A stretch of 44,860 bases of DNA, filler included, from Jimgerdemannia flammicorona (lineage: Eukaryota), in assembly GCA_003990765.1 (NCBI GenBank). It is 2 parts of 2 records of this genome, joined end to end, with 100 filler letters (N's around TTAATTAATTAA, not from the genome) between each part and the next. Parts side by side here need not be neighbours in the genome. Positions count along the whole stretch, not along the records: positions 1 to 22,380 come from RBNJ01001290.1; 1 more part is not named here. One strand, given 5' to 3'. A model generated the notes under the pieces. That model worked only from the letters and a program-made list of their open reading frames with translations. It ran no database searches and was not told where the DNA came from. This document shows, piece after piece, positions 4,740 to 39,440 of the stretch. The position numbers and the translations under genes were made by a program. Each line of letters opens with the position of its first letter. Position 1 is the stretch's first letter.

Positions 4740-5825
4740 TCACAAGATCTTGCACAGCTTGCGCCGTAGCCGCGTGATGCCGCCAGACATGGCGGCCTTG
4801 GTTGCGGCGGTGATGACTTCGTCGACGCCGATATTGGATTTGGCGCTGCACTCGTGGTAGTGGGCACCGATGTCGCGTGCGAGGGATTCGCCCTGGTGGA
4901 GGTGGAATGGAAAGGGATTAGTGATGAGGGTGGGAGTTGAAAGCGATGATAGAAATGTGTTTATTTTTATTTTTTTAAAAAGAATTGTCTGGCCGCAGAA
5001 GTCGAAATTTACCTCCTCATAGGTGATTAACTGATGGCCCATCGCGTTCAAGTGAGCAATGCGCTCAGCATTGTCACGGAGGTCGATCTTCATACCCACG
5101 AGGATCTTGGGAACCGTTTCGCAAAAGTGCGTCACCTCAGGCAGCCACTGTAGAAGTGAGTGAAGCAAGTTAGAAATCGCATTCCACGGACGAGCGACGT
5201 TTCTCCCTCGCTTCGACCTTGTCAAGTTTGCTATTTCTACGGAGAAATGAGTAAGCAAACAAACAAAAGAACACACCCTATCCTGCACGTTTGAGAACGA
5301 CGTCCGTTGGTCGATAGCGAAGCATATCAGGATGACGTCGGTTTCAGGGTAGGACAAGGGCCGGAGACGGTCGTAGTCCTCCTGACCAGCTGTGTCCCAC
5401 AATGCGAGCTCGACGGTCTTGCCATTTTCGAGCTTGACGTTCGCAATGTAGTTTTCGAAGACAGTTGGGACATAGCGCTATGTGGTGGGATTGGAGACGG
5501 TAGGGTGTGAGAATAGGCCATGTAAAACTTTACAGATGCATTTAGGAGTGGCGGGGTTGTCGGAGTTGTTGGGGGGACTGTGTGTGTGTGTGTGGGGGTT
5601 ATCTCGACAGGTTACCTCTGGGAAAGAGCCGTTCTGGTAAACGACTAGTAGACTTGTCTTGCCGCACCCGCCGTCACCAACGACAACCAGTTTCTTTCGG
5701 ATTTCCTGTTTCACGCGAGGTTATGGGTGATATATAATCAGTGAGATGTATCGGAGCATACTGATGCAGGGGTTTAGGGACAAATCAATGCGATGTATGA
5801 AGGAGAGACGACTCACTCTGGGCAT
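4740..5825 (-). CDS. RHO4: Rho-family small GTPase, Rho4-like; exons 5825-5817, 5705-5616, 5477-5277, 5147-5013, 4892-4740 (~195 aa)
   Basis: Spliced protein [23 protein letters not shown]...[13 protein letters not shown]...[25 protein letters not shown]...ECSAK...RRKLCKIL. G1/G3/G5 boxes, Rho effector loop and CaaX are present, and all introns are GT..AG phase 0. Rho family is certain; the Rho4 subfamily call rests on recalled similarity ([16 protein letters not shown]). Confidence 0.92.
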
Positions 5826-6442: not shown

Positions 6443-9371
6443 ATGGCTAGCCGTATTCAAGATAATTACATGAAAGGCCGAAAGAAGAAGGTCGCTGAAG
6501 AGAGGGAGCAGGATTTGGCTAGACTCAAGGTACGGTACAATAAATCGATAGAGCATTCTATTCCCAAAGGTGATTGGAACATCGATGGGATAACAAACAT
6601 TGATAATTTGCGATCGTCATAAAAATTACGCCAAAAATTTACATCTCCCGCACACCAAAACCCGTCATATTCTTACTCCGCTCAATGACGTACCCACTTC
6701 TAGTCTTTCTTCTCTTCGACTCTAGACACGGCCTTGATCATCGATATATGGAACGACTCACACAACTACTCTAAGAGCTTCGGTACCCTGTCCACACTGG
6801 CCAAGGAGGCTGATGTGCTTACTTCCGAGGAGCAGAACGCGCGCGGAGGACAGACGCCCGAGCTGCCCGAGCCGCCTGAGCCGCCCGAGCTGCCCGAGCC
6901 GCCTGAGCCGCCCGAGCCGCCCGAGCCAATCGTAGCCGATCTGAGACCGGTGAAGGACATGACGTTCGGTGGGGCACCGGATGGTGGGGGTGGCGGGAGC
7001 GGAGAGAAGCAGGCGGGCAAAAGGAAGAAAAAGAAGGGCAAGGGGGAAAAGAAAAGCGAGGTGGCGGAACATGATGTGCTCAATATTCCCGGCCGCTTCC
7101 CATCGTCTCCCCAGGACGAGCTCACCACCAATTCCTCTCCCTCAGCTGACGACAACATAGTCCCCTCCACCACGCTTGACTTTCTCTGCAAATGCTTCCC
7201 CGCGCAATCGCCAGACGAACTTCACGTCTTTTTCGACAAAAATTCTGGCGACCTTGGGCAGACCATTGATGCCATCCTTAACGCTATCTATCTGGAATCC
7301 GAGTCTCTCGACGCGGAGGAGTCAGCCTCTGTTTCTTCGTCGTCATCTTCCGCATCCTCAGCCGCTCAGGAGGATGCCGAGTCCAACTCCACCACCTCTT
7401 GGGAGGAAGGCTACGGCGAGGAGACCGGCTACTGGGACACGACCATCACGACGGAGCAATGGCAGGCCGTGTACGGCGAGGAAATGGACGACGACGTCGC
7501 GGGCGACACCGACGCTATCATGAGCAACAAGGCCCGGCGGATGCAGGAGCGGCTCCGCAAGCAGCAAGCCACCCTTGAGAAGAAGAGCACTCTCCTGTTC
7601 GAGACCGAGGGCCATCCGAGCTATTACAACCGCGACGCACAGACCTCGGGATTGTCGTCTGACCTCTCACCCCCACAGTCGAACCAGTGGCACCAGTACA
7701 GCACGCAAATCGACTCCATCGCCGCCGTGTTCCCGTCCCTCCCTCGTACGACCGTCGTCACCGCCGTGCATCGCCATCGCGGCGACACGGTTGAGGCCGT
7801 GGACCAGCTAATGCGCGAGACAGGCACGGAGCCCGCGCGCGCGCTACACGACTGGCGAGAACTTAAAAAGTTCGACGGTGTGTTAGGGGACCTGGTTTCG
7901 TGCTTCCCTGAGCATGATGTCGACGCACTCCAGCGCGTGCTCGTCGGGGTCACGATCCAGGCGGGGGTCGAGGGATGGGACAGGGACAGGATCCCTCCGG
8001 CGGCAGCCGATGTCATACTGAAGAGGGATCATGCGACGGAGATCGAGGAGAAGGAGACGAGTACACCTTTCTTGCCGCCGGCGCTGGCATTCGACCATGC
8101 GACGGGTGAGTTTGTGAGGTCTAAGAAGGCGGTGGCGGCGGCGGCTACGGCGGCGGCTACGGCGGCTACGGCTTGGGGAAGGCCTGCGGCGGCGGCGACG
8201 GCTCGGGGAAGGCCTGCGGCGGCGGCGACGGCTCGGAGAAGGCCTGCGTCGTCGCCCAATGTACAGTGGCCCGGAAAAGGGAAGGCGGTCGTGGCGGCGC
8301 GGAAGGAGCATGCGCATGATGATCCGGTGTATTGCCGCAATATGGCGGCGGATTATGTAAAGCAGCGAAATGAGGCATTTCAGAAGGCGGCGGCGGCGTT
8401 CCAGAAGGCGAAGGGGAAGGGGCCGGCGGAGGGGGGAATCTCAATGTATTATTCGCAACAAGTAAGTGACGGAGTGGACGGATTTGTTGATATTGCGGGT
8501 GAGGGAAGGAGATTGTGCGTGGCTGAGAAGGTGGTGGAAATCTTAATAACCATGGGATGTGAAATGTCCGTCGGTCCTGAAACACGTATTCGCCAAAACC
8601 AATTGATCGGTTATATTGTAGTGTGGAGGAGGATGTAAAAAAAATTGAATTCGGGTGGATGACCACGAGATATTGGACGTGTTAAGACAGAGAATTGGTA
8701 TGCTGGAGCGATTAACCCCTCCTCATCAACAATGCGTATTGCAGGGTCACGAATTTGACGCCAAGGTCAAGGAGTGGAACATGCGCGCTGCGAGGGCATT
8801 GGTGGATAAGCATCGGTGCGTATGCGGTTTTTGGTTGCTTTTCTGCGTTCTGCGGGTTCATCAGTCTCTAGTATCATTATTATTTACCATCATTACCTCG
8901 TTCCATATTGACCTTAATCCCTCATCTCCAGCGTGAACGCCAACAACGACCATCTCATTGACCTACATGGGGTGACCGTCAACGAGGCCATCACGATTGT
9001 TCGTGAGGGCGTGACGCAGTGGTGGGCGAGGTCGACGACGCGGGCTGGTGAGTTGCGCTTATGATTAATATGAGTATTATCTGGGTATTTTGCAACGCGG
9101 TGGTGCTGGGCTAGTGGACGGAACTATCAGTGACAAGCGCATTGCACCCTTTTTACCCCGTTTCTCTTTCTTCAACAACTCCACTTTGATCGACACAGCC
9201 CACACGGCTCTGCGCCCACTCCAGATCGTCACAGGCGTGGGCAAGCATTCTCCACAGGGCATGTCGCGGCTGTATCCTGCCGTGACCAAGTGGCTGACGC
9301 AGGAAGGGTGGAGTTTTGACGGGAACAAGGGGGCGATTATGGTGAGAGGATTGGCGGAAAAGAAGAGATGA
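6443..9371 (+). CDS. CUE2: CUE-domain/DUF1771/Smr endonuclease (Cue2/N4BP2/NONU-1-like); exons 6443-6529, 6704-8461, 8745-8815, 8932-9047, 9199-9371 (~734 aa)
   Basis: Several CUE-like motifs (LDTALIIDI, FLCKCFP...DLGQTIDAIL, AVFPSLPRTTV...AVDQL, VSCFPEHD), a DUF1771-like helix (RNEAFQKAAAAF...YYSQQ|GHEFD...WNMRAA) and Smr motifs IDLHGVTVNEA and IVTGVGKHS. Splice phases are consistent through to TGA at 9369-9371. Confidence 0.85.
6857..6927 (+). repeat. Coding minisatellite (PEL/PEP repeats) in the CUE2-like gene
   Basis: 9-nt units such as cccgagctg/cccgagccg/cctgagccg encode PELPEPPEPPELPEPPEPPEPPEP. Confidence 0.85.
8128..8250 (+). repeat. Coding Ala-rich repeat with 30-nt units (ARGRPAAAAT)
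   Basis: gct(t/c)gg(g/a)gaaggcctgcggcggcggcgacg x~2.7, preceded by GCG/GCT-rich triplets. Confidence 0.85.
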
Positions 9372-10493
9372 GGCGGGGTGTGGTTCCGGGATCTGAATGG
9401 AGAAGTGGAATGAATGTTGGGACATGACTTTGAATGTGGATAAAGTTTTGGACGCCCACTCGCATTATATGTACATATTTTGTCGGAACCTTCTATTTAA
9501 CTTTTCTTACATGTCATCTGCGCTCTAACATGTAAAGTCGAAGGTCAGCGCTGAGCCGGTCACGGAACCGGATATCATAAACCGTCAACAGTCAAACACA
9601 CCCATTTTTTCTCTTTCTCTCACAGGCCGCACCCACCGAAATTCACTTCACCGAGTGGTGTATTCGCCCCATGTTTTATGTCAATGCTTAATTTTCATCT
9701 CGTAACCGGTCTGAGGTTGAAGACCGCGCGTTTTATCCATTTAAGGTTGACGTCAGAAGTCTTGATGTGGGGCTGTCACACTAACAAGGTGCTTGCCTGT
9801 TCAGCACTAGTAAATCGATATGCAGTGAAATGGTTATTGGGCCGTGTTTAGACCTAAAAATGTTGATTAAAGTAGTCTCGCTTGTATGCATGTACGCGAC
9901 TGTACATCAGCTCGGATTAAGAGGACTGGAATGGACATGTATGCGCACATGTGTGGAGGAAGGATAAGCGCCGGTAATGGAAAATTCGGCAGGTTTTGGT
10001 TTAAACTTTTCCGGGCGATCCATTGTCGCCGTATGGCGCCAAACATCACCTTTCCTCTCCTGGATGAAGTCCGCATCTCCGGCCTTAGCTCGGGATGATG
10101 CGTACCTAATTTATTTGACCCTGACGCCCTGACGGCCGTTCTTATCGAACTTAGCTCCACTCGTCATGCACGCCAGATTGAATCGGTCCATTTGTTGCCG
10201 TCGAGATCTGGGGTGATAAACGGGAGGGGGTGATGCGTGCTTGAGGTAATGTGTACAATATCATGCATGTCGATGAACGATCCCATTTGGAGCAAAAGAT
10301 AGTGCCAGGATTACCTGACGTACACGCTGATGATTGGATCTATGTGGTCCTTCTCCACTATTAAAATAAATACATAAATAACATTTGAACAAAGGATAGA
10401 TGCTGAGTGAGTGCTCGGCTTAATGTTAAACACACCCGCCACATATGACCATGAGTATATTGTTATGTGCTCAATTGTCTGAAAGCTTAGAGT

Positions 10494-10894
10494 TATAATA
10501 ATATATATATATTTAATATTTTGAATGGGTGGTACTTACCAATTAATATATTATTTTAATTTTTTAGTCTTGGTAATGACGAAATAGAAATAATAGATAA
10601 TAATAAATAATAAAATAATAACAAACAAGATAATAAATTGATAAGTAATAATAGATGATAATTAACTGTAAATATATTAATTAAATATTATTTGAATTTT
10701 ATTTATTTATCTTATTATTATTATATTTTATATTATTATAGGAGTTGTAGTTTTAAATAAATCAACTTATTCTGATTTGATTTGATTTATTGAGAGTGAA
10801 TAGTTTTCAGTATACATTTATTAGAATATTTTATATAGCGTTTAAATTAGTATCATAGGATTAAAATATTATATATATTTAGCTAAAGATTATC

Positions 10895-10925
<31 letters not shown>

Positions 10926-10930
10926 TTAAA
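10494..10930. other. Extremely AT-rich block bounded by (TA)n runs
   Basis: Abrupt composition change; (TA)n at about 10500-10512 and 10900-10925. Lies immediately upstream of the BTB-SPRY array. Confidence 0.7.
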
Positions 10931-11100
10931 AAAGACTATGCAGATATATGGAATAGAATTACAAACGAACGATTGCTCTTACCATTGAATGGAGCTCGTT
11001 CAGGTTTTGGGTGGCCCTCTGTAGAAGCAGGAAGAGAGTAACATGTCACAAGTCGCTGCGCCACACTTCATCTTGTCTAGGAATATCGTCAAAACTAAAC

Positions 11101-12632
11101 ATGGTCGTGCAATCCGACAGTGGTCTTAGCCTCAAGGACGACATCGCTTCCATTTGGAAAGACAAATCCTACCACGACGTAACCATCGTCTGTGCCGATG
11201 GGGTCGAGCTTGGCGCTTGCCGTGCTGTGTTGGCTGCAAGGTGTGTTTGATCGTTTCTTTATGTGTTTCATAGTTTTTATGGATTTATCTCATATCAATT
11301 TATGTCCTGTGGTTCCAAAGGTGTCCCGTATTCAAGGCAATGCTGTACGGAAATATGCAAGAGAGTGTCTCCCAGCGCATCGTCCTCCATGACATCAACT
11401 CTTCAGCGCTCACTGTCGTTCTCGGCTTCATCTACACCGAATCGATCGACGACACCAGCACCACCATCGCAGTAGATATCTACCGTGCAGCGAGCTTCCT
11501 TCTCCTCCCAAAGCTCATGACAATGGTTTTGGAGAGCACCCAAGACATTTCCGACTTTGGCGTCTCTTCGTCTCTCCTCAACGGGGCCGCCGCCTCCATC
11601 CCTTGGAGTGAGGCCAGCAAGGACCTCTATACTGTGCTCCTCAAGCCCTTCTACGCTTGCAAGCTCGAAATAGGAGAGTTGACAGACCTCTCTAAAGAGG
11701 CCATCGAGCTGCTCTTCACTGCATCCTACGCGACTCCCTTCGTCACTTCCGAATACGACCTACTTCTGTGTGTCGTCGACTGGGTCTGGGCGAATGCCGA
11801 AGAGCCGGGACCCGACGTTTCTGAGCGTCATGGTGTCTTGCGTGATGTTGCTAGTATGGTTCCTGGATGCGAAGGCAAAATTCGACTGAAAAATGACTCG
11901 TTGCTGAACATGATGAGACATGTGGACCTCAGCCTTGTGTGCCCGCATCGCCTGAAGATCCTCACAGAAGCGGTTGAAGGGTTTGCAGAGACGTCTCCGC
12001 ACTATACGGCCTTTTGTCACCACGCATGTAAGAACACTGTGTGTCCAACGGGACACCCATCCGGGTATCGCGGACGTAAAGATCGTGGACATCAAGATCT
12101 CCAGTGGGATCGATCGAAGGTCGGTTCACACATTGTCGTCTCTGATGATGGCAAGGTCGTGGAGCCTTCTGTCCGGGCGCCGACGACCGTGAGGCAGACG
12201 GCGTGGATATCCGTCCCCGGGACGACGACTCGGGAAGGATTGTGTGAATGGGACATAGTGGTCGAGTCCGTTGGATGGAATAATGGGGATGTGTCCTGTC
12301 CCCTTAGCGAGATCGGGTTGGTGGGTGAAGAATTCACAGGTTTCAATTCCTACATGCAGGGCAAGTCATCGGCTTGGATATTCCAGTCTTATAGGAATGA
12401 TCATCGGAAGGTGGTGACGTTGCAAGATACCCGTGACTATGGCGTTATTCTTCAGAGTGGCGATGTAGTGACTTTGCATCTGGATAAAGACAACCATACT
12501 TGCGCCTTTTCTGTCAATGGCATTAACCACGGGATTGCATGGACCAACCTTCCAGAAAAGGTGTACCCTGCGGTGACTTTGTGCAGTCAATCCAAGTATC
12601 GGATAAAAGATCGTTTCCCCTCCTCTTTGTGA
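11101..12632 (+). CDS. BTB/POZ-(BACK-like)-SPRY/B30.2 protein, copy A; exons 11101-11240, 11321-12632 (~483 aa)
   Basis: BTB motifs YHDVTIVC...ACRAVLAAR|CPVFKAMLYGNMQES...IVLHDI...GFIYT; BACK-like SEYDLLLCVVDWV; SPRY motifs WD..., EWDIVV, IGLV, YGVIL.SGDVVTLHLDK..HTCAFSVNG..HGIAWTNLPEKVYPAV. GT..AG phase-2 intron. Confidence 0.88.
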
Positions 12633-13356
12633 ATACGGCTTCTCTTCATCCATTTCTTAGCTATTGTATGAATTTGTAATAACCTACTAGTTTTTTATTT
12701 TATTTTATAAAAGATTCCGGTTTCCATTAATTACATACTTTAAACCTTCCCAATTTGGTCGTCAATAATATAAACTGGAGATGTTCTGTCGGAATGGCTA
12801 AACGACGCAAACTTTTTACTTTCTTTATATGCAGTGTCAGAAAACACATGTTTATGGGCAAAATAATGACCATAGTCGAGAACCGCCCATGAACGTCGAA
12901 CTAATATTTCATTTTTATTTATCTGAATGTATCGAGTTGACACACACACTCGCAAATCACTGTCGCAACCGCTCTGTCGTAATAAACTACCCAAATGTGA
13001 CAAATTGCCAGTAGTACAAAACATATCATTTTTTCGTTCCTCGGAAAATATACAAACAAACGATTTCTCTTACACTCACCATTGAATTGGAGCTCGTTCA
13101 GATTCACAAGGGTTTAGCCCCTGTTATTGGGCCTTGAGCAACTTGCCGATGACGTTAGCGATCTGCTCGTCGAAGAAATGATACTGACGCCTGGGTATCC
13201 ATCAGCCTGGCTGCAGCTGAAACTCTACTTGAAGTGTGTGTTTTACTGCAGTAGCATGCTTTCTCGAGTTTGTTCATGAACTCCGTCAGCTAAACTGGCG
13301 TTTCACCTTGTCCAGAAACATACACTTGAATCATCAACTCAAATCAAAAACTAAAA

Positions 13357-14043
13357 ATGGCCGTGCATTCCGACAGTGGTCTTAGCCTCAAGGACGATAT
13401 CGCTTCCATATGGAAAGATACATCCTACCACGATGTAACCATTGTTTGCGCCGATGGCGTCGAGCTTGGCGCTTGCCGTGCTGTGTTGGCTGCAAGGTGT
13501 GTTTGATTATTTCTTTACTGTGTTTCATGGTTTTTGTAGTATTAACTCAATGTCATAGGGTTCCTAAGGTGACCCGTCTTCAAGGCAATGCTATACGGAA
13601 GCATACAAGAGAGCGGCCTTCTGTCGGGGCGCCGAAGAATGTGAGGCAGACGGCGCGGATATCTGTCCCCAGGACAACGACTCGGGAGAGATTTTGCGAA
13701 TGGGACATAGCGGTGGAGTCTGTTGGATTGAATGTGTCTGAACCCCTAATCGAGATCGGATTAATGGGCGAGGAGTTCACTGGTTTCGATTCCTACATGG
13801 AGGGCAAGTCATCGGCTTGGGTATTCCAGTCTTATATGAACATATATCGGAAGGTAATAAGGTCGAGAGGGACCCGTGACTATGGCGTCATTTTTCGGAG
13901 CGGCGATGTAGTGACTTTGCATCTGTGATAAAGACAACCATACTTGCGTCAATGACATTAACCACGGGATTGCTTCCGGAGAAGATACACCCTGTCGTGA
14001 CGCTGAGTGTTAAATCCAAGTATCGGATAAAAATCGTCCTTAA
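13357..14043 (+). pseudogene. BTB-SPRY copy B pseudogene (exon 1 plus SPRY region only)
   Basis: Exon 1 (13357-13496) is intact, but the first full codon of exon 2 is TGA (13570-13572; Cys in the other copies). A ~796-nt deletion at 13615/13616 corresponds to copy A 11368-12163, and there are further small indels near 13925-13975. Confidence 0.9.
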
Positions 14044-14145
14044 TCTCTTTTTGAATAAGAACTCCTCTTCATTCTCAGCTGATTGATACTGTTGTATGAA
14101 ATTGTGTGGATTTATCTTTTTAGGCATCTGCTAAAAACCTACTAT

Positions 14146-14186
<41 letters not shown>

Positions 14187-14500
14187 AAATAAATAAATAA
14201 ATGAAAGAATCTGGTTTCCATTGTGTGCTTTTAAATGACATGTTTTAAGCCTTTACAGTTTGGTCGTCAGTGATATAAACTGGAGATGTTCTATCGGAAT
14301 GGCTGAACTTTCAATAATTCACAATCGTTGCAACAAATGCTTGGACGTCGATGACGTTGGCGGTTTGTTCGTCGAAGAAATGGCGCTGCCGCCTGGGTAT
14401 CCATCGGCCTGGCTGCGCATTTTGTTATTTGGTCACAAGTCTCTGCGCCACTTGTCTGAGAACATCCCTTGAAATCGTCAACCTAAATAAAAAACTAAAC

Positions 14501-16018
14501 ATGGTCGTGCAATCCGACAGCGGTCTTAGCCTCAAGGACGACATCGCTTCCATTTGGAAAGACACATCCTACCACGATGTAACCATTGTCTGCGCCGATG
14601 GCATCGAGCTTGGCGCTTGCCGTGCTGTGCTGGCTGCAAGGTGTGTTTGATCGTTTCTTTGTTTTTCATAGTTTTTATGGATTTATCTCATATTAATTTA
14701 TGTCCTGTGGTTCCAAAGGTGTCCCGTATTCAAGGCAATGCTGTACGGAAACATGCAAGAGAGTGTCTCCCAGCGCATCGTCCTCCATGACATCAACTCT
14801 TCAGCGCTCACTGTCGTTCTCGGCTTCATCTACACCGAATCGATCGACGACACCAGCACCACCATCGCAGTAGATATCTACCGTGCAGCGAGCTTCCTTC
14901 TCCTCCCAAAGCTCATGACAATGGTTTTGGAGAGCGCCCAAGACATTTCCGACTTTGGCGTCTCTTCGTCTCTCCTCAACGGGGCCGCCGCCTCCATCCC
15001 TTGGAGCGAGGCCAGCAAGGACCTCTATACTGTGCTCCTCAAGCCCTTCTACGCTTGCAAGCTCGCAATAGGAGAGTTGACAGACCTCTCTAAAGAGGCC
15101 ATCGAGCTGCTCTTCACTGCACCCTACGTGACTCCCTTCGTCACTTCCGAATACGACCTACTTCTGTGTGTCGTCGACTGGGTCTGGGCGCATGCCGAAG
15201 AGCCGGGACCCGACGTTTCTGAGCGTCATGGTGTCTTGCGTGATGTTGCTAGTATGGTTCCTGGATGCGAAGGCAAAATTCGACTGAAAAATGACTCGTT
15301 GCTGAATATGATGAGACATGTGGACCTCAGCCTTGTGTGCCCGCATCGCCTGAAGATCCTCACAGAAGCGGTTGAAGGGTTTGCAGAGACGTCTCCGCAC
15401 TACACGGCCTTTTGTCACCACGCATGTAAGAACACTGTGTGTCCAACGGGACACCCATCCGGGTATCGCGGACGTAAAGATCTTGGACATCAAGATCTCC
15501 AGTGGGATCGATCGAAGGTCGGTTCACACATTGTCGTCTCTGATGATGGCAAGGTCGTGGAGCCTTCTGTCCGGGCGCCGACGACCGTGAGGCAGACGGC
15601 GTGGATATCCGTCCCCGGGACGACGACTCGGGAAGGATTGTGTGAATGGGACATAGTGGTCGAGTCCGTTGGATGGGATAATGGGGATGTGTCCTGTCCC
15701 CTCATCGAGATCGGGTTGGTGGGCGAGGAGTTCACAGGTTTCGATTCCTACATGCAGGGCAAGTCATCGGCTTGGGTATTCCAATCTTATAAGAACACAT
15801 ATCGGAGGGTAATAGGGCCGGGAGATACCCGTGACTATGGCGTCATTTTTCGGAGTGGCGATGTAGTGACTTTGCATCTGGATAAAGGCAACCATACTTG
15901 CGCCTTTTCTGTCAATAGCATTAACCACGGGATTGCATGGACCAACCTTCCGGAGAAGGTATATCCTGCGGTGACGCTGAGTGTTAAATCCAAGTATCGG
16001 ATAAAAGATCGTCTTTAA
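14501..16018 (+). CDS. BTB-SPRY protein, copy C; exons 14501-14640, 14719-16018 (~479 aa)
   Basis: Same exon structure and motifs as copy A; nearly identical to A up to the SPRY domain. Confidence 0.88.
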
Positions 16019-16782
16019 TTTCTTTGTGAATACTACTCCTCTTCATTCTTAGCTGGTTGATACATATTGTGTGGATTTATCTTTTAAGCATCTGCTAAAA
16101 TCCTACTATGGTTATATATATATATAAGATTCTGGTTTCCATTTTGTGCTCTAAATTATATGCTTTTAAGCCTTTATAGTTTGGTCATCAGTGATATAAA
16201 CTGGAGATGTTTTATCGGAATGGCTGAACGACGCACATAAACTCTTCAATTTCCAATTATATTCATTAGTGGTCGAAATGCAACAAATACTTGGACACAA
16301 GATTATATGATGGTGCTCAACAATTGAAAAACGCATACTTATGGGTGAAATCATGACTATAGTCGTGAACCACGCACTGATATTTTCCTGGTTGCGAATT
16401 CATTCAACCTTTTTTTATCTATTTATCTAGATGCATTGAATTGACATACACACGGCGAATCCCGGGTTGTGGTAATAAGCTGGCCGAATGTGACATATTG
16501 CCAATAGTATATACAAATATTTCATTTTTCGTGCCTCAGAAAATATACAAACAAATGGTTGCTTTTATAGTCACCATAGAATTTGGCCTTGAGCGACTCG
16601 CCCATGACATTGGCGGTTTGCTCGTCGAAGAAATGGTACTGACGGCTTGGTATCCTCTGTTGAATATCAGTCTGGCTACAGCTGAAACTCTACTTGAAGT
16701 GTATTGCACCTGGCAGGAAGGCAGCAACATGTTTTCTCGAGTTCATTCCGTCAGCTAAACTGGTCACAAGTCGCTGCGCCAC

Positions 16783-17141
16783 TGTAATGAGTTGTCGCTG
16801 AGTGCTCGTCTATCTCTGTTTTCAATAGATTAGTTTAGCTTAGTCTTTTTTTTTCTTTATCTTTTATACTGCATTCTAGATGCCAAGAAGTGTTTCTTGG
16901 TGCCAAGCACCAAGTCATAGTTAATCTTGGCATTTGCCAAGCACAGCACTCGGATATTCTATATAAATACCCCTCTTTTCTATCTGAATAAACCTTAAAA
17001 TATTCTTCTGAACACTTCCAAACATTTCTCCTATAAATTCCCCTGAACTCCCAGAACCCAAGTAGCACTTCATGTTACTTAGTCTATGCTAAGATCCACT
17101 AGAACTTAGTCACTTCCTCATTCTAGACTACGCTCGTTACA
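16783..17141. mobile_element. Solo LTR (359 bp) with 5-bp TSD GCCAC
   Basis: Starts TGTAATGAG and ends CTCGTTACA (TG..CA, short inverted termini). GCCAC is duplicated at 16778-16782 and 17142-17146. The paralogous empty site is visible upstream of copy E (gctgcgccac|agttcatcttgtccagg). Internal TATAAATA near 16962. Confidence 0.88.
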
Positions 17142-17202
17142 GCCACTGTTCACCTTGTCCAGGAACATACCCTGAATCGTCAACTCAAATCAAAAACTAA
17201 AC

Positions 17203-18736
17203 ATGGTCGTGCAATCCGACAGCGGTCTTAGCCTCAAGGACGACATTGCCTCTATATGGAAAGACACATCCTACCACGACGTAACCATCGTCTGCGCCGA
17301 TGGCATCGAGCTTGGCGCTTGCCGTGCCGTGCTGGCTGCAAGGTGTGTTTGATCTTTTTCTTGATTGTGTTTCATGGTTTTTAAGGATCTATCTCATATT
17401 AATTCATGTCATATGGTTCCTAAGGTGCCTCGTTTTCAAGGCAATGCTGTACGGAAACATGCAAGAGAGCGTCTCCCAGCGGGTAGTCCTCCACGACATC
17501 AACTCTGCAGCTCTCACTGTCATTCTCGGCTTTATCTACACCGAATCGATCGACGATACCATCGCCACCATCGCAGTGGACATCTACCGTGCAGCGAACT
17601 TCCTTCTCCTCCCAAAGCTTATGACAATGGTGCTAGAGAGCGCCCAAGACATTTCCGACCTTAGCGTCTCCTCGTCTCTCCTCAACGGGGCCGCTGCCTC
17701 CATCCCTTGGAGTGAGGCCAGCAAGGACCTCTATGCTGTGCTCCTCAAACCGTTCTACGCTCGCAAGCTCGCCATAGGAGAGTTGACAGACCTCTCTAAA
17801 GAGGCCATCGAGCTGCTCTTCACTGCACCCTACGCGACTCCCTTCATCACCTCCGAATACGACCTGCTTCTGTGTGTCGTCGACTGGGTCTGGGCGCATG
17901 CCGAAGAGCCGGGATCCGACGTTGCGGAGCGTCATGATGTCTTGCGTGATGTTGCCAATATGGTTCCTGGATACGAAGGCAAAATTCGGCTTGGAAATGA
18001 CTCGTTACTGAACATGATGAGACATGTAGACCTCACTCTTGTGTGTCCACATCGCCTGAAGAGCCTCACAGAGGCGGTAGAAGGGTTTGTGGAGACGTCT
18101 CCGCACTATATTGCCTTTTGTCACCACGCATGTAAGAACACTGTGTGTCCAACGGGACACCCGTCCGGGTATCGCGGACGTCAAGATCGAGGAAGTCAAG
18201 ATCTTCAGTGGGATCGATCGAAGGTCGGTTCCCGTGTTAACTTCTCCGATGACGGCAAGGTCGTGGAGCTTTCTGTCGGGACGCCGACAACCGCGAGGCA
18301 GACGGCGCGGATCTCCGTTCCCGGGACAACGACTCGGGAGGGAATATGCGAATGGGACATAGTAGTAGAGTCTGTTGGATTGTATAGGGTGTCTGAGCCC
18401 TTAGTCGAAATCGGATTGGTTGGCGAGGAGTTCGTTGCTTTCGATTCTGATTCTGATTCCGATTCCGGGAGCGAGCCATCGTCATCGGCGTGGATATTCC
18501 AGTCTTGTAGGAATGATTGGTGGAAGGCAATAGGGTTGGGAGTGACCCGTGACTATGGCGTTATTCTTCGGAGTGGTGATGTAGTGACTTTGCATCTGGA
18601 TAAAAACAACCATACTTGCGCCTTTTCCGTCAACGGGATTAACTACGGAATTGCATGGACCAACCTTCCAGAGAAGGTGTATCCTGCCGTGATTTTGTGC
18701 AGTCAATCCAAGTATCGGATAAAAGATCGTCTTTAA
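17203..18736 (+). CDS. BTB-SPRY protein, copy D (most divergent); exons 17203-17342, 17425-18736 (~483 aa)
   Basis: Same exon structure and motifs; DSDSDSDS insertion in a SPRY loop. Confidence 0.88.
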
Positions 18737-19587
18737 ATTTATCTCCCCTCGTTTTTGTGAATACAATTCTCTTCATTTCTTAATGGAGTGATGAATTTAT
18801 GTGGATTTAGCATTTTAGGCATCTGCTATATGTTATTTTAAAATTACATATATATAAAAGATTCTAGTTTTCATTTTGCGCTCTCAATTACATGGTTTTA
18901 AACCTTCGCGATTTTGGACATCAGTGAATAATGCCTAACATAAATTGTCGAAAATGGCACATAAACCATGCGCCAAGTCACAGTCGCTATATTGATTGGT
19001 GGTCGAAATACAACAAATGCCTGAATACATGATTATTTGGTGGTGTTTAACAATTGTAAAACACGTGCTTGTTGGATGAAATAATGGTTATAGTCAGGAA
19101 CCGCCCACGAACGTCGCACGGATATTTTTCTGGTTTCGTGAATTCATTCAACCTTTATTTTTTTATCTGAATGCATTGAGTTGACATGCTCGAAAAACGC
19201 TGTCACAACCAAGCTGCGGTTAAGCTAGCCGAGTGTGACAACATTTCATTTTCTTGTATATATATATATATATACAAACAAACGATTGCTCTTGAATTGG
19301 GCTCGCCCAGCTCCACAAGGTTTTATGGGCCTTGAGCACCTCGCCGATGACGTTGGCGGTTTGCTCGTCGAAGAAATGGCACTGACGACTGGGTATTCTC
19401 AGCCTAGCTACAGGTGAAAACTCTACTCGAAGTATGTGTCATACCTGGCAGGAAGACATTCTAGAGTTTGTTTCATGAACTCCGACAGCTAAACTGTGTT
19501 TTGTTATTTGGTCACAAGTCGCTGCGCCACAGTTCATCTTGTCCAGGAACATACCCTTGAATCGTCAACTCAAATAAAAAACTAAAC

Positions 19588-21103
19588 ATGGTCGACAGTG
19601 GTCTTAGCCTCAAGGACGACATCGCTTCCATATGGAAAGACACATCCTACCACGACGTAACTATCGTCTGCGCCGATGGTGTCGAGCTTGGCGCTTGCCG
19701 TGCTGTGCTGGCTGCAAGGTGTGTTTGATCGTTTTTTTTATTGTATTTCGTAGTTTATATAGATCTATCTAATATTACTAATTCATGTTTCGTTGTTCCA
19801 AAGATGCCCCGTATTCAAGGCAATGCTGTACGGAAACATGCAAGAGAGCGTCTCCCAGCGCGTTGTCCTCCACGACATTAACTCTGCAGCGCTCACTGTC
19901 GTCCTCAGCTTTATCTACACCGAATCGATCGACAACACCACCACCACCATCGCAGTGGACATCTACCGTGCAGCGAGCTTCCTTCTCCTCCCAAAGCTCA
20001 TGACAATGGTTCTGAAGAGCGCCCAAGACATTTCCGACTTTGGCGTCTCCTCGTCTCTCCTCAACGAGGCCGCCGCCTCCATCCCTTGGAGTGAGGCCAG
20101 CAAGGGCCTCTACACTGTGCTCCTCAAGCCCTTCTACGCTCGCAAGCTCTCCATAGGAGAGCTGACAGACCTCTCTAAAGAGGCCATCGAGCTTCTCTTC
20201 GCTTCACCCTGCGCGACTTCCTTTGTCACTTCCGAATATGACCTGCTTCTGTGTGTCGTCGACTGGGTCTGGGCGCATGCCGAAGAGCCGGGACCCGACG
20301 TTGCGGAGCGTCATGGTGTCTTGCGTGATGTTGCTAGTATGGTTCCTGGATGCGAAGGCAAAATTCAACTGAAAAATGACTCGTTGCTGAACATGATGAG
20401 ACATGTGGACCTCACCCTTGTGTGCCCGCATCGCTTGAAGATCCTCACAGAAGCGGTCGAAGGGTTTGCAGAGACGTCTCCGCACTACACGGCCTTTTGT
20501 CACCACGCATGTAAGAACACCGTGTGTCCAACGGGACACCAATCCGGGTATCGCGGACGTAAAAATCGAGGACTTCAAGATCTCCAGTGGGATCGATCGA
20601 AGGTCGGTTCACACATTGTCGTCTCTGATGATGGCAAGGTCGTGGAGCCTTCTGTCCGGGCGCCGACGACCGTGAGGCAGACGGCGCGGATATCCGTCCC
20701 CGGGACGACGACTCGGGAAGGATTGTGCGAATGGAACATAGTGGTCGAGTCTGTTGGATTGAATGTGGGGAGAAGGTCTGAACCCCTCAGCGAGATTGGG
20801 TTAGTGGGCGAGGAGTTCACTGCTTTCGATTCGTACATGGAGAGCAAGTCATCGGCGTGGGTATTCCAGTCTTATAAGGATGATCATCGGAAGGTAATAG
20901 GGTCGAGAGGGACCCATGACTATGGTGTCATTGTTCGGAGTGGCGATGTAGTGACTTTGCATCTGGATAAAGACAACCATACTTGCGCCTTTTCCATCAA
21001 TGGGATTAGCCATGGAATTGCATGGACCAATCTTCCAGAGAAGGTGTACCCTGCCGTGACTTTGAGCGTTCAATCCAAGTATCGGATAAAAGATCGCCTT
21101 TAA
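19588..21103 (+). CDS. BTB-SPRY protein, copy E; exons 19588-19718, 19804-21103 (~476 aa)
   Basis: Same structure; in-frame 9-nt deletion after the start (MVDSG vs MVVQSDSG). Confidence 0.88.
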
Positions 21104-22380
21104 TTTTGTCTCCCCTCCTCTTTGTGAATGCAATCCCCTTCATTCCTGATTTGATACATTATATATATATATATTATATACTTTTTATTTTTTTTTATAT
21201 CTTTTTCAACACAAAAGATTCTAGTTTCCATTTTGCGCTCTCAATTATATGTTCTTATGGCTTCCCAACTAAGTCGCCAGTGATAATGCTTGAGACTGGA
21301 ACGACGCTCAAAAACTCTTCGCCAATTTCCATGTGTGCACAAATCGCAATCGCTATATTCATTAATACTTGAGATGATTATGATAGGGCAAATTTCTGTT
21401 ATTGCCCGCATTTTATAACAATTGTTTATGGATGAAACTATGGCAATAATCGGAACTGCTCACGAATGTCGCACTGGTTGCGTGAATGCATCCAACATCT
21501 GAATGCAGTGAGTTGACATACTCGCAAATCGCTGTCGCGGCCGAATGTGGTATATCGCCAATAGAGAAAGACTGCAGAAAATATTAACCACTATAAAACA
21601 CTTCTGATGCATATATATCACTTGAAACGTTTCGGAAAGGAATTATAGCTCTATGTGCGAAAGCTGCAGGGAATGCTTGGGATAAAATTACCGGTGCAAC
21701 CCTAAATCTATTCTTACTACCTCACACAACCCCGAGCCCGGTTTCTATTAAATTCGTAAAATCGCAAAATCCTCTAACCACGACGTTCATACCGTCTCTC
21801 CAATCCTCCAAACAAACATATTCTATAATCCGTCACTTTTTGATTCACAAATCGCCATCGCGGGCAGGTCCCAGCGGTACCCAAGGCTTGAGCCGATAGC
21901 TTCGAAGCTCCGGCCAGTGATGCATGGCGCGATGGGTTTAGCGCTTTCCGACGGGTCAAGACTTGAGCTGCATGATTCACATGTCGAGACGATGCATTCG
22001 TTTTCTTCTGACGCCATCCATTACGGTATATCCGGTTGAGGTGGGTCCCATCTTGAACCGTGCTCGGCGGATCAATTATTATAGGTGATAAGCAGTCGTA
22101 TACCCAGTTCAAGAACGTGATGTGGAACCTTGCAAACCCATTGATTGAACGTTCGCCAAACAGATTGGCAAGCGGGGCTATAGCGAAAAGTCGATTGCCT
22201 CTGTCAAAAGGAGATGGTCAACATTTTGATTCTATGTATCCAAAAAAAATAAACCGTCGATAAAAAGACTGCAAGGGTGACATCACGCCACGTTCAGAAG
22301 AAAATCGACTATTTGCTCGTTGAGGGGAGGGAAAAAAAAAGCTTCGCCTCCATTCAACACCGGATTAGGTAAAGGGGGGG

Positions 22381-22480
22381 NNNNNNNNNNNNNNNNNNNN
22401 NNNNNNNNNNNNNNNNNNNNNNNNTTAATTAATTAANNNNNNNNNNNNNNNNNNNNNNNNNNNNNNNNNNNNNNNNNNNN
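22381..22480. other. Artificial gap/linker: 44 N + TTAATTAATTAA + 44 N
   Basis: The 12-mer gives stop codons in all six frames and sits at the exact midpoint (22380+100+22380=44860). Confidence 0.95.
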
Positions 22481-23584: not shown

Positions 23585-26500
23585 TGAGGTAGAGGGGATA
23601 ATAATAGGGGAAAGGGAACTCAGAAGGTTGTCTACCAAACTCTGTGACTGATAAGGTAGTGGAGAAAGGAGCAGAGAATTGGGAACATCTGCAAATAGTT
23701 CTCCAGAGTTCAAAGACTGAGGAGACAGTGAAGACTGAGGCAGCTAAGAGCCAGATGGAGGGAGTGGAGACAGCTGAGGTATCTTTCTTACAGCTGAGAG
23801 ATGTGGAGAGTTCTACTCATATACTGGTAACAGAGAAGTGGGCAGATAAGGAGAAGGTGGGAGAAGGGAGTTTTGAGAATATTACTGAGATAGTTCTAGA
23901 GACTCAGCTGGAGGATGATCAGATGGCAGGAGCTGTAAATATTCATTGGAGGTGCCTAGAGGCTGGTGAGGTGGTGAGGCTGGAGAAGATTACTGAGGAA
24001 GATGATCTAGTGAATATGGCCTCAGATATGTCAGCTGATAGAGAGATGCTTTAGGAACTGAGTAGGACCTCAAGGTCAGTCACTCCTAGGCCTCTAGTAA
24101 TGATAACTGATAGTTGGTATCAGGCAGTACTTGAGGAGCTTGCAGAGGAGGATATCAAGGAAGTAGATATATTTCATAGATCTTAGAAGGCTTGAGAGAG
24201 ATTTCTTAATATTATAATGTAAGGACTGAAGTTGGTGACAGTAATGGTGGCAGTACTGCTAGATGATGAGGAGTATAATATTGATGAGAGCCAGATGGCA
24301 GATATCAGGAAGGTGGCATTGGAGCAGGTGGAGGTATTTTGCAGAAATGTAAATAGAGTGTACATCTGGAGGGCTATCTGTGAGGAATAAAAGAAAATAA
24401 TCCATAGCAGGGCTGAGAAGGTAGTGGTGATTTCAGCAGAGCTTTAAACAAAATTTTTGATAATGATGAACAGTCTATATATATTATCTTTAAATGTTAA
24501 TAGGCTGTATGATAGAGTTAAGTGGTAGTGATTGTTTTGTTGGCTGAAAGTCAAGAGGTATGATGTAGTACTTCTTCAGGATGTTTGAGCTTATAGTGAG
24601 CAGGATTATATTGAGTAGAGTAGAGAATAGTATGGTGGTACTGGCTGGAATGAGTAGGTAGGCATCTTAGTGGGTGTTGGAAGAGAAGAGCTAGTGGAGG
24701 TGAAAATCTACAGAGATCAACTGGTATGGGTAGACTGAAAGGAAGAAAGGGTGATGGACTGATAGTGAGCTCTGTCTATCTTCTGGTAGTTGGCAGAGAG
24801 TGAAAGCAATGGGTGGAGGGTTGGCTGACATGGGAAGATCAGAAAGGGGTAGGGTTAGATATTTTGGGGGGAGACTTTAATATGGTGCATAACAGGATAC
24901 TAGATAGGTCTAATAGTGGAGTAGGTATAATAGTCTCAGCTGGGCTCACTCAGTAGCTCCAGGTTGAGAGAGATATGGGATTGGTGGATAGTATCTGATG
25001 ATGTCAAGGGGAGAAGCCTGGGCCCTTTACTCAGTGGCACTCTGTGGGCAAGAGTCTGGTTGGAACCAGAATTGACTGAATTCTGGTGGCTGAGGATTGG
25101 GGTAATGTACTGGATATTACAGGGGTATGGTGGTGCCCTTGGTCAGATCACTGGAGAGTGAAAGTATGTAGTAGATTTCAGATTATCAGTAGGGGTAAGA
25201 GTCACTGGTAGCTTAATGTAGCTCTTCTAAGAAGATAGGTAGAGTGGAAATGATTTGTGGAAATTGCAAGACAGGAGATATCATAGTAGAAGGAGAAAGG
25301 ATAGCTGATAATATAGTAGCAGGGTAAATTTAAATAGTTGGCAGATATCTATTGGTATAATGTTAGGGAGGTTGTCAGTAAGAAGTAGAAGAATAAGGAG
25401 AAGAGAGTTGAATGTGGACTGCAATAGCAGTTGAAGCTGATAGAAGGGGGGAACTTGTTAGGAGAAGAGTACTCCCAACTAGTAGTAGAGATGACTGAGT
25501 TGCAGCTAGACCTTAGGGGTGCTGAGGATAGAGTAGTGGATGGCCTGTTGACAAGGCTGTAGGCCAGGCAGCTAGAAGAAGAATAGTGGTCTATGAAGTA
25601 TTTATCAGGCATTTTAAAGGTTAGAAAGATATGATACAGCTGGGCCTCAGTGTTGTGAGAGAATGGCACTGAGGTTACTGGAATTGGAGAGATGCTGGGT
25701 GAGGTTTCTGGGCAATGGCAGGCTCTCTGACAGAATGAAGGGGGGCTAGTAGAGGGTGAGGTATTATAGGAGAATAATGACAATTTGGTGGGTAATTGGC
25801 CAGTAATAAATCCAAGATAGGTAGGGCAGTAATGGATATAATAACTCTGGAAGAGATGTTAGAGATGTTAGAGAAAGTGCAGACAGGTTCATCACCAGGG
25901 GAGGATGGGCTGCCTTGGGAATTCTGAAAAAAGTTCTGGGCCAAGTTCAGTATCTGGCTAGTAGAAATGGCATACTTTAAATTGAAGAAGAGTAGCTAGA
26001 TTGATAATAACTCCTTGGGGCTGATCTCTTAGCTATATAAGGAGAAGGAGATCAGCAGAAATAGTGGAATTGGTAGTCAATCATATTGCTGAATATAGAT
26101 AAGAAACTGGTGTCTAAGATTCTGGCTGGAAGATTGTAACAGTAAATTGGCAGACTAGTGGGTGAGGACCAGCAAGGCTTTAACAAAGAGAGATAAATTC
26201 GAGACAGCACAGCTTGGGTGCAGAATATTTTAGAGAGCTGTAGGAGCTGACAAGTGGATAGAAGGATGATTTTTTGGATCTGAAGAAGGTATATGATAGG
26301 GTGCAGTAGAATTATCTAGAGGCAGTAATACAGAAGACAGAGTTCAGTATAGTAGAGGCAGAGAGATTGATGGACTTAGTACATGACTGTAGAGTAGCTA
26401 TCTTAATGAATGGATAGAGTGGTCTGGAATTTACCCTGGGGAGAGGTGTGCCACAGGGTAATCCTCTCTCTCCCCTACTCTATATTCTCTCCTTGGAGCC

Positions 26501-27040
26501 TTTGCTGACTTGGCTGAAGAGATGGCTTATAGGACTATAAATGGAGAATGTGGTCTGGAAGCTAGGAGCATTCACTGATGATATGGTGGTTGGATTAGGC
26601 TGCTTGACAGATGTAGAATACCTATAGGAAGGGATTGGTCAGTATGAGAGATTGGCAAGAGTGAAATTGAACTGAGGCAAGTATGAGACAATGGAGTTAG
26701 ATACTAGCTTGGGAGAGAATAGGTGATTTGGACAAATAGTGGCTATGAGAAATGCTGTCTGATATTTAGATATTTGGTTTTTAGTATATGGGACAATATT
26801 ACTAAAGAAGTAGTAGTGTGATATAATACAGAAGTAGGAGGGGGTACTGACAGGTTAATCAGAGAGATACTTCTCCTTAATTAGGAGAGTAGTGGTTTTA
26901 AATATATATTGGTTGCCAAAGTTATAGTACTTGGAATACTATCTGGATTTTTCTAGATGGATGGTGCAGAGGCTGAAGAAGGTGGTGGAAGAATGGCTAT
27001 GGCAGAGAGGATAGTTATAAATTAGTTGAGAGACCTTCTG
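23585..27040 (+). mobile_element. Degenerate LINE (ORF1 tail plus APE endonuclease-RT ORF2 from ~24463; L1/Tx1-like), truncated
   Basis: ILSLNVN (24480), VVLLQD, GGDFN (~24867), SDH (~25143), SPGEDGLPWEF (~25890), DQQGF (~26167), RGVPQGNPLSPLLYILSLEPL (~26442), AFTDDM (~26568); many transition-derived stops. Confidence 0.9.
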
Positions 27041-34979: not shown

Positions 34980-35330
34980 CTTAGGCTTCTTGATTTCATG
35001 GATCAGTATCTAGCCAATCCTATTATGCTTCTTGACTTCAAATAGAGTGGTGGGGTTGCTATTCCTGACTATGAGAAAGATCTCACTAGTATAATTAGGG
35101 TTAATTATCTCTCCTTTAACTGAGATTTTGCTTTTGGCCAGACTGCTCCTGGTCTTGATAATTCTAGCATAGTTCTCTGGCAACTTGACTCCAATTCTGA
35201 TATCAAGTAGAGTGGTGGTCTGTGGTTTGAGGGTAGTATCTTGAATGCTGACAAAATCCATTCCTATGGCTCCTTTAGTCTTATATTCTGGGATCTTAGC
35301 TTTGGGGTAAAACTTCTTGACCTTGAGGGT
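34980..35330 (-). pseudogene. dUTPase domain within Gypsy pol, between protease and RT
   Basis: PKI...KTKGAIGMDF (motif 1), TRSSLAK (motif 2), KGEIINPNYTSEI (decayed GGIIDPDYTGEI, motif 3), HNRIG (DRIAQ-like motif 4). Confidence 0.85.
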
Positions 35331-39050: not shown

Positions 39051-39440
39051 ATATAAACTAAAATACTCTATCTGAAAATAGAGACATTATATTCATCTAT
39101 AATCTCTGATAGAGTCAAGCTACTATTTACTAAAAGTCTATCAGTCTGGTAGTTTCTTAGTATTTATAAGTGTCTTATGATTGATAGTATTCTTATAGAA
39201 ATCTTATCAGTAGCTTCTAAAAACTACTTTATATTATAAGTGTCAAGATCAATAGATTTCTAGTTATATTGATACTGATCAAATATTGCTTTCCAGAGAA
39301 CTTCATAGATATATTCAGAAGGTGAGAGTATGATTTATTTATGTTTTAGTTTTGTTTTTGAGGAGTGTCTATGAGTTTGCATAGCTATTGTTTATTTGGT
39401 TGATTATTTCTCAGAGCTAATTTGTGGGGTATTTATTTGT

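Follow-up and report, generated by a model that had tools for sequence, protein, structure and literature searches.

The closest described analogue of the locus treated here is the MATH-BTB (BATH) family of Caenorhabditis and grasses. The locus itself is a tandem array of genes that join a BTB domain to a SPRY domain, at positions 11101-21103 of a 44,860-nucleotide stretch of the genome of the fungus Jimgerdemannia flammicorona (assembly GCA_003990765.1), hereafter the window. MATH-BTB genes encode BTB-containing adaptors of Cullin-3 (Cul3) and, as here, lie in tandem clusters with pseudogenes (PMC4091423). They pair a conserved cullin-binding module with a fast-changing substrate module, an arrangement established for F-box genes too and one that the array appears to share (Thomas 2006, via PMC4334554), and MATH-BTB proteins have been suggested to act against foreign proteins in an immune-like way (same source). 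There are differences as well. MATH lies N-terminal of the BTB domain, whereas the array proteins carry SPRY C-terminal of a BACK-like region; MATH-BTB is absent from fungi according to PMC4091423; and positive selection, which has been reported for MATH-BTB, is not established for the array.

Other families resemble the array in part. The B30.2/PRY-SPRY proteins of the TRIM group (TRIM5alpha, the finTRIM of fish) tie a variable-loop SPRY domain to a ubiquitin ligase and have grown by duplication (PMC2657112). Pfam searches of the array's open reading frames (ORFs) recovered BTB and SPRY alone, with no RING, B-box or coiled-coil match, so that ligase activity would come via Cul3 and the TRIM-like character proposed in an earlier note on this DNA is an analogy only; the N-terminal half matches BTB-BACK proteins instead. 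The main variable region of TRIM5alpha lies on the PRY side, whereas the N-terminal (PRY-side) sandwich segments of the array are conserved among copies. SPSB/GUSTAVUS proteins likewise set a SPRY substrate receptor on a small cullin-RING docking module, and their loops A-E bind the ligand (PMC2923778), but they dock through a SOCS box, which is C-terminal and recruits Cul5, rather than through an N-terminal BTB-BACK unit, and their contact residues are strictly conserved whereas the approximately matching loops of the array vary. The order of parts in the array (BTB, putative helical 3-box/BACK, C-terminal beta-rich substrate domain) is that of the BTB-BACK-Kelch (KLHL/KBTBD) and BTB-BACK-PHR (BTBD) proteins, which have a Kelch propeller or a PHR domain in place of SPRY and differ also in that the array has no Pfam BACK domain. 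For the SPRY half, the best match in both structure and sequence is the IUS-SPRY domain of RanBPM/RanBP10 (Z 21.5-22.0; profile E ~2e-17). These proteins belong to an E3 substrate-receptor module, the CTLH complex, and in this resemble the role proposed for the array, but they are single-copy and conserved, with a LisH-CTLH-CRA scaffold and without BTB.

Nearer in lineage, the BTB/POZ genes of arbuscular mycorrhizal fungi are highly expanded, some of them in tandem arrays, and their function is unknown (PMC8647823, PMC3886924, PMC7550596). The array belongs to the same wider lineage as these expansions; the accessible parts of the same three papers describe BTB/POZ and BTB-Kelch/BACK genes, and no BTB-SPRY class. 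We found no published BTB-SPRY class for Glomeromycot* taxa, though domain tables of mycorrhizal genome papers may list such combinations. We propose, with a probability of about 0.6, that the locus is a lineage-specific, tandem birth-and-death array of BTB-BACK-like-SPRY substrate adaptors of Cul3 in the Mucoromycota. What is new is best filed as the replacement of MATH or Kelch by SPRY in a probable Cul3-adaptor family of early-diverging fungi, the concept of expanded adaptors being already known. The array is also a compact and concrete case, with a Cul3-type docking half, a substrate domain, four short variable loops and exchange between copies, and it makes what has been a vague "expanded signalling family" experimentally approachable.

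Genes, pseudogene and the putative Cul3-docking half

The ORF listing, a motif search and hand splicing together resolve 11101-21103 into four intact two-exon genes of 476-483 amino acids (aa) and one pseudogene, all on the plus strand. The bounds, as they had been given beforehand, are exactly the first ATG and the last stop. Each intact gene has a single open frame and one phase-2 GT..AG intron of 78-85 nucleotides (nt), which lies inside the BTB domain. In c1 (11101-12632, 483 aa) exon 1 spans 11101-11240, the intron 11241-11320 (80 nt) and exon 2 11321-12632. The exons of c3 (14501-16018, 479 aa) lie at 14501-14640 and 14719-16018, on either side of a 78-nt intron (14641-14718), and those of c4 (17203-18736, 483 aa) at 17203-17342 and 17425-18736, around an intron of 82 nt (17343-17424). 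In c5 (19588-21103, 476 aa), where 9 nt are deleted just past the start codon, they lie at 19588-19718 and 19804-21103, with 85 nt between them (19719-19803).

Five copies had been claimed, and four of them stand as intact genes; the second, c2 (13357-14032, plus strand), is a pseudogene. Its three-frame translation and the tblastn pieces, which fall in three frames (13357-13614, 13614-13925, 13927-13974 and 13973-14032), reveal a TGA at the exon junction, two frameshifts within the SPRY portion and the loss of approximately residues 63-327. Exon 1 and the intron are retained, while the deletion takes most of the BTB domain and all of the helical middle. The presence of a pseudogene beside four intact genes speaks for birth and death of copies. 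A tblastn search with c1 found no further copy in the window, and the intergenic ORFs of the array had no Pfam match. Capture of the units by a transposon was considered and rejected, there being no flanking terminal inverted repeats and only AT-rich chance pairs.

Directly upstream of c1 is a very AT-rich stretch (10001-11000; 31% guanine plus cytosine (GC), with (TA)n runs), the genes themselves having about 50% GC. Only 1.3 kb separates c5 from the contig end at 22380, beyond which the array may continue. The spacer that follows (22381-22480) consists of 44 N, TTAATTAATTAA and a further 44 N; TTAATTAATTAA has stops in all six frames, and the whole spacer looks like an artificial contig join, so sequence past 22480 need not adjoin the array.

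Contigs from two public sequencing runs of the same organism, X1 and X2, were compared with these gene models. They were aligned at 90% likeness, with 31 letters on the shorter side as the criterion for an exon joint, and the runs are possibly from the same sample as the window and not independent of it. Two X2 contigs join the exons of c4 (17339>17422, skipping 82), with 51 letters on the shorter side, and this is the only joint with at least 31 letters there. One contig each in X1 and X2 joins those of c5 (19719>19805, skipping 85; shorter sides 28 and 27), and one X2 contig those of c3 (14637>14716, skipping 78; shorter side 23). Two X1 contigs match without a single difference, one of 472 nt on c4 (18256-18727) and one of 341 nt on c5 (20619-20959), while the signal of c1 is inseparable from that of c3 or of other paralogs. 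These joints fall exactly at the predicted introns of c3, c4 and c5 and so support the gene models; should the runs be RNA, which is a guess, they also speak for transcription and splicing. No contig covers the intergenic bins 12651-13350, 14051-14400 and 16151-16500, which we do not use as evidence. Many joints link different paralogs (for example 17343>19805 and 12117>18347); they were taken as assembly chimeras or as other paralogs, and not as biology. Over 10901-21400, 81 of 175 contigs in X1 and 71 of 214 in X2 match the array at 90-95%; these contigs, together with the joints between copies, suggest further paralogs or alleles outside the window.

The combination of BTB and SPRY that the earlier note described is found by Pfam in all four intact copies. 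BTB (PF00651) is matched in the exon-2 ORFs of c1, c3, c4 and c5 at 24.9-32.7 bits (cut-off 20.5; E 9e-8 to 2e-5), and the exon-1 piece matches positions 6-33 of the BTB profile. A family profile built from 41 members was run against solved structures and matched SPOP (3htm_A) at E 7e-20, KLHL22 at 3e-19, KLHL3 at 4e-18, KBTBD2 at 1e-16, and gigaxonin and KLHL11 at 1e-15. The matches to KLHL3 (profile positions 16-223), KLHL11 (23-223) and gigaxonin (9-217) continue for some 100 residues past the BTB domain, into the 3-box/BACK region; with KBTBD2 counted in, these matches end at about 208-223.

In the KLHL11-Cul3 and SPOP-Cul3 structures a hydrophobic residue inserts into Cul3 and a glutamate bonds helix H2, the contact residues being Phe130/Ser131/Glu132 in KLHL11 and Met233 in SPOP (PMC3597819). 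Residues Met59-Gln60-Glu61 of c1 (11355-11363, plus strand) are invariant in all four intact copies and are aligned with Met-Glu-Glu of SPOP (3htm_A) in the profile alignment, which puts them where the alpha3-beta4 loop of the BTB domain makes its hydrophobic-x-Glu contact with Cul3. The profile match and the retention of the Met-x-Glu contact agree with the proposal that this BTB is of the Cul3-adaptor type. The protein is most likely a Cul3 adaptor of the BTB-BACK type with a SPRY substrate receptor. By homology, it would work as a dimer that brings substrates to a Cullin-3 RING ubiquitin ligase, with the N-terminal BTB domain and its helical extension binding Cul3 and the C-terminal SPRY beta-sandwich gripping the substrate; dimerisation, Cul3 binding, substrate binding by the loops and differing specificities of the copies are all predictions of this kind.

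Variable loops on the SPRY sandwich

The protein alignment of the four intact copies has 489 columns, of which 111 are variable. Variation touches 16 of 120 columns in BTB (13%), 28 of 180 in the BACK/linker part (16%) and 35% of the SPRY third. Within the latter it is gathered into four short loops, where 37 of 47 columns vary against 74 of 442 elsewhere (Fisher p=6e-18; loops defined after inspection). A scan that is blind to the loops gives the same picture, in that columns 410-422, which correspond to loop 3, are variable in 13 of 13 cases and none of 5000 permutations reaches 13, their maximum being 11. The concentration of substitutions and indels in short SPRY segments, as described in the earlier note, thus exceeds chance, and all five of the loop strings listed there are present in the translations.

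SPRY (PF00622) scores 30.3-37.4 bits in the four intact copies (cut-off 26.3; E 3e-9 to 5e-7). For exon 2 of c1 (436 aa), AlphaFold2 gave a model (mean predicted local distance difference test score, pLDDT, 86; model number equals full-length residue minus 47) that is helical up to residue 238 and then forms a beta-sandwich. Besides many other SPRY structures, this sandwich matches RanBP10 at Z 22.0 (root-mean-square deviation (rmsd) 2.7, 176 residues aligned), the PRY-SPRY domains of TRIM9 and TRIM67 at Z 21.2-21.3 (rmsd 2.1-2.4), Ash2L at Z ~20 and SPSB2 and GUSTAVUS at Z 19.4-19.5 (19.2-19.5 over the SPSB/GUSTAVUS group). The structure match lists are dominated by the SPRY half and are uninformative on the BTB-BACK fold.

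All four variable patches map to inter-strand hairpins, loops or turns of the modelled sandwich, as had been expected of them. Loop 1 (c1 12273-12308, residues 365-376, model 318-329; this and the following loops on the plus strand) is a beta-hairpin with in-frame indels of 6 and 9 nt between copies. Loop 2 (12342-12365, residues 388-395, model 341-348) sits within a long loop at model 336-350, and in c4 it has undergone an 18-nt expansion of a GATTCT-type repeat that encodes DSDSDS. The hairpin of loop 3 (12390-12428, residues 404-416, model 357-369) is the densest variable window. Loop 4 (12579-12590, residues 467-470, model 420-423) is the turn between the last two strands and occurs in two forms, which differ by an apparent insertion plus deletion within 6 nt.

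The position of these loops may be compared with the ligand contacts of SPSB1, which involve Arg77 in loop B, Thr111 in C, Tyr129 in D and Val216-Gly218 in E, on a face opposite the termini (PMC2923778). The structural alignment of model 253-435 with SPSB1 chain 46-231 gives an offset of 204-207; this approximate offset puts loop E (SPSB1 216-218) on loop 4, C immediately ahead of loop 1, and D where loop 2 begins. On the model, then, three of the four patches would lie approximately at or near loops C, D and E, with which SPSB proteins bind their ligands, and this placement suggests that the copies probably recognise different degrons. Among 37 relatives, loops 2 and 3 belong to the high-entropy segments (about 3 bits, versus 1.5-2.2 in the core) and loop 1 is missing from most (gap fraction 0.84 at model 320-325). 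A further segment, model 284-301, is variable across the family (3.1-3.4 bits) but conserved within the array.

Exchange between copies and the tests of selection

The copies are mosaics that have arisen through exchange of segments between paralogs. By sliding identity, c1 and c3 are 97-100% alike in nucleotides over 11268-12265 (plus strand), intron included (nucleotide divergence K 0.026 in the intron); past about 12265 the remainder of the gene is 77-96% identical per 100 nt, and the aligned 3' flank (K 0.335) is 61-84% identical. Per 100 nt there are 0-2 differences specific to c1 or c3 up to about 12300 and 1-9 beyond it, and the 3' part of c3 with its flank is nearest to the pseudogene c2 (84-95%). 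The drop in identity at about 12265 is where exchange or conversion between the paralogs has a boundary. Synonymous differences between c1 and c3 number 3 at 128 sites in the middle of the gene versus about 18 at 125 in the SPRY third (Fisher p=5e-4), and the same unevenness, in the same direction, is found for c1-c4 (p=0.004) and c1-c5 (p=0.016). Quartet sites that pair c1 with c3 and c4 with c5 occupy 62 positions, and those within genes that pair c1 with c4 and c3 with c5 concentrate at 12378-12586. With c2 included, all four gametes occur in 415 of the 780 informative-site pairs in 12130-12632, and the conflicting splits are spatially clustered. The loops themselves are shared in different combinations: loop 1 is common to c1 and c3, one form of loop 4 to c1 and c4 and the other to c2 and c3, and c5 looks recombinant at loop 4.

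Exchange of segments explains in part why the 5' half looks constant. The contrast between a constant module and a variable surface, which the earlier note had emphasised, is indeed seen, but it is partly due to exchange between paralogs, which makes synonymous divergence uneven; likewise the near-identity of the BTB/BACK halves holds for c1 against c3, at the 97-100% given above, but other pairs are only 85-98% alike. Exchange could itself create new loop combinations. On our reading the variation has four sources, namely substitutions at an approximately neutral rate, in-frame indels, microsatellite expansion and repeated segmental exchange, the last by gene conversion or unequal crossing-over that would keep the 5' docking half more alike. 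Site models assume a single tree, an assumption that exchange breaks, and Anisimova, Nielsen and Yang reportedly found in 2003 that recombination inflates tests of selection based on such models.

Positive selection on the SPRY loops, which had been claimed, is not established; it is neither demonstrated nor disproved by the tests made here. The ratio of non-synonymous to synonymous divergence (dN/dS, or omega), calculated by the Nei-Gojobori method per region for the six pairs of intact copies, is 0.08-0.13 in BTB, 0.22-0.41 in the middle (BACK/linker) and 0.15-0.28 in SPRY outside the loops. In the 47 loop codons it is 0.76-1.38, a value biased upward because the loops were picked as variable, and non-synonymous and synonymous divergence in the loops do not differ in any of the six pairs (Fisher p 0.48-1.0). 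The site models M0, M1a and M2a were fitted with our own maximum-likelihood implementation (GY94, F3x4, four taxa). For the whole gene, M2a (log-likelihood, lnL, -3148.83) improves on M1a (-3156.85) with a likelihood-ratio test statistic (LRT) of 16.0 (p=3e-4) and places 3% of sites at omega 8.9; 9 of the 11 sites with posterior >0.5 fall in the four loops. The 3' 117 codons on their best topology give LRT 7.34 (p=0.026), while the 5' 360 columns have no M2a signal (LRT 1.5, p=0.46).

Many loop codons, however, differ at two or three positions. Allowing double and triple changes, at the cost of two parameters, raises the M1a fit by 16.5 lnL in the 3' segment and by 21.6 in the whole gene, and the M2a signal is then gone from both (LRT 0.0, p=1.0, and LRT 0.88, p=0.64, respectively). 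Under this multi-hit model 46% of 3' sites fall in the omega=1 class. Masking 18 codons, which stand beside indels and the apparent insertion-plus-deletion (a compensated frameshift) of loop 4, gives LRT 4.98 (p=0.083). Multi-hit models can also absorb genuine rapid adaptive change, so the loss of the signal does not disprove selection. In nucleotide terms the loops diverge (K 0.33-0.56) about 1.3-1.5 times as much as the local synonymous sites in the rest of the SPRY domain (0.22-0.41). The locus carries a wider caution, as a textbook site-model call of positive selection vanished once multi-nucleotide changes and recombination were considered.

These results bear on what the loops are for. 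If the duplicates were redundant and all did the same job, their loops could be drifting free of constraint, scrambled by gene conversion while copies are being lost. Loop dN/dS of about 1, the large omega=1 class in the 3' segment, the slippage-type DSDSDS expansion in loop 2 of c4 and the decay of c2 would all be expected of such a process, as would the high entropy of loops 2 and 3 in the relatives and the lack of loop 1 in most of them. Yet four of the five copies have retained complete reading frames (476-483 codons) and show strong purifying selection outside the loops (omega 0.08-0.41), the loop indels of the intact copies are all in frame, and exon-joined contigs exist for three copies; moreover, the family-variable segment at model 284-301 is conserved within the array, so it is not simply every loose loop that varies. 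We regard neutral decay as unlikely, though it deserves to be kept in mind. A different reading takes the loops to be driven by positive selection against non-self proteins, which would be sent to Cul3-dependent degradation by a surveillance repertoire akin to TRIM5 or MATH-BTB, with mycoviruses, transposon proteins, and endobacterial or host proteins as possible targets. The omega >1 class of the standard M2a, its sites mostly in the loops and its signal present in the 3' segment without the 5', speaks for this, as do the excess of loop K over local synonymous divergence and the new combinations that shuffled loop variants would give; the same reasoning has already been applied to the MATH-BTB and F-box families (Thomas 2006, via PMC4334554). 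But the multi-hit model fits far better and removes that class, masking takes p to 0.083, loop dN/dS is not above 1 in the six pairs even though the loops were picked as variable, and recombination is pervasive among the copies. Such a repertoire therefore seems to us quite improbable, and an immune-surveillance role of the array is speculation. It is a still bolder speculation, and a decidedly doubtful one, that the BTB-SPRY proteins of the early-diverging, plant-associated Endogonales and Glomeromycotina form a Cul3-based intracellular recognition repertoire that marks foreign or selfish proteins (of mycoviruses, transposons or endobacteria) for degradation, its SPRY loop variants reshuffled among tandem paralogs by gene conversion, with more added by indels and slippage. 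If true, this would be a fungal counterpart of the TRIM5/finTRIM and nematode MATH-BTB systems, and would open the first route to a function for the still unexplained expansion of BTB genes in mycorrhizal fungi.

The proteins might also have nothing to do with Cul3, the BTB domain serving for self-association, as in BTB transcription factors, and the SPRY domain as a scaffold, as in RanBPM of the CTLH complex or in Ash2L. The best single PDB match of the family profile is a ZBTB17/NAC1 BTB fusion (E 7e-21), with BCL6, PLZF and other non-adaptor BTBs matched too, and the closest SPRY structures, RanBP9/10 (Z 21-22) and Ash2L, act as scaffolds; the lack of a Pfam BACK match points the same way. 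SPOP, KLHL, KBTBD and gigaxonin are nearly as good, however (E 7e-20 to 1e-15), and it is only in this adaptor group that the match continues for about 100 residues beyond BTB. With the Met-x-Glu contact kept and no DNA-binding or other effector domain found by Pfam, we consider a role outside Cul3 ligases very unlikely. The proposal that the array encodes Cul3 adaptors with diversified SPRY loops nonetheless has several points weighing against it. Non-adaptor BTBs (ZBTB17, BCL6) match the BTB core of the profile equally well, c1, c3, c4 and c5 have no Pfam BACK match at E<=0.01, and the 3-box/BACK assignment is drawn from the profile match and the modelled helices. The correspondence with the SPSB loops was taken from the first and last aligned residues and not from a residue-level superposition, and loop 3 is without a counterpart among the SPSB contacts given in the accessible part of PMC2923778. 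Loop dN/dS near 1 fits unimportant loops as well as specificity loops, and four sequences give low power in every evolutionary test. In addition, the RNA type of X1 and X2, which contain 0.23 and 0.20 of the sampled words, is guessed only, and two of the three intron joints, those of c3 and c5, have fewer than 31 letters on the shorter side.

Relatives and surrounding sequence

Full-length relatives of the array proteins, at 25-51% identity, are without exception unnamed or hypothetical. Those with a named source belong to Endogone sp. FLAS-F59071, Ambispora leptoticha, A. gerdemannii, Paraglomus occultum and P. brasilianum, with further relatives in Glomus cerebriforme, Rhizophagus irregularis and Funneliformis geosporum. 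A search of 5.8 billion proteins returned five relatives, the best at 47% identity, and a representative protein search gave 226 matches; E was <=1e-30 for 15, yet none was near enough for synonymous-site work. The closest relative found, and the one match from a metagenome scan, is a terminal BTB fragment on a soil-type contig (L001 1706-1927), which shares 77% identity with c1 exon 2 over its residues 1-74 and, at 74 residues, is too short for use.

Endogone is the nearest named relative for two different genes, an array gene and a neighbouring ORF with a CUE domain. The latter, at 6704-8638 on the plus strand, stays open for 644 codons, carries weak motifs of the CUE and DMA types and is 36% identical to the Endogone hypothetical protein; the frame contains in-frame tandem repeats of 9/27 nt at 6855-6927 and of 30 nt at 8160-8248. 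Also upstream of the array are a fragment of an S-adenosylmethionine (SAM)-dependent methyltransferase gene at 2686-3147 on the plus strand (Pfam E 3e-15) and, at 4740-5477 on the minus strand, fragments of a Ras-family GTPase gene in three stretches (E 1e-29), which is probably split by introns.

In the second part of the window, two stretches (24001-27000 and 39001-44000) show strong strand asymmetry, with a GC skew of +0.43 to +0.55, the plus strand having about three times as much G as C; towards either end of the second stretch the skew is 0.29-0.34. Both have about 36-45% GC, few long ORFs and no detectable similarity to one another. Between them lie two direct repeats of about 1 kb (30522-31589 and 37681-38722), which are 84-90% alike and about 7.15 kb apart and look like the long terminal repeats of an old retroelement. 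The interval that they enclose is otherwise poor in long ORFs but holds one at 35010-35441, on the minus strand, with a dUTPase domain (Pfam E 1e-13).

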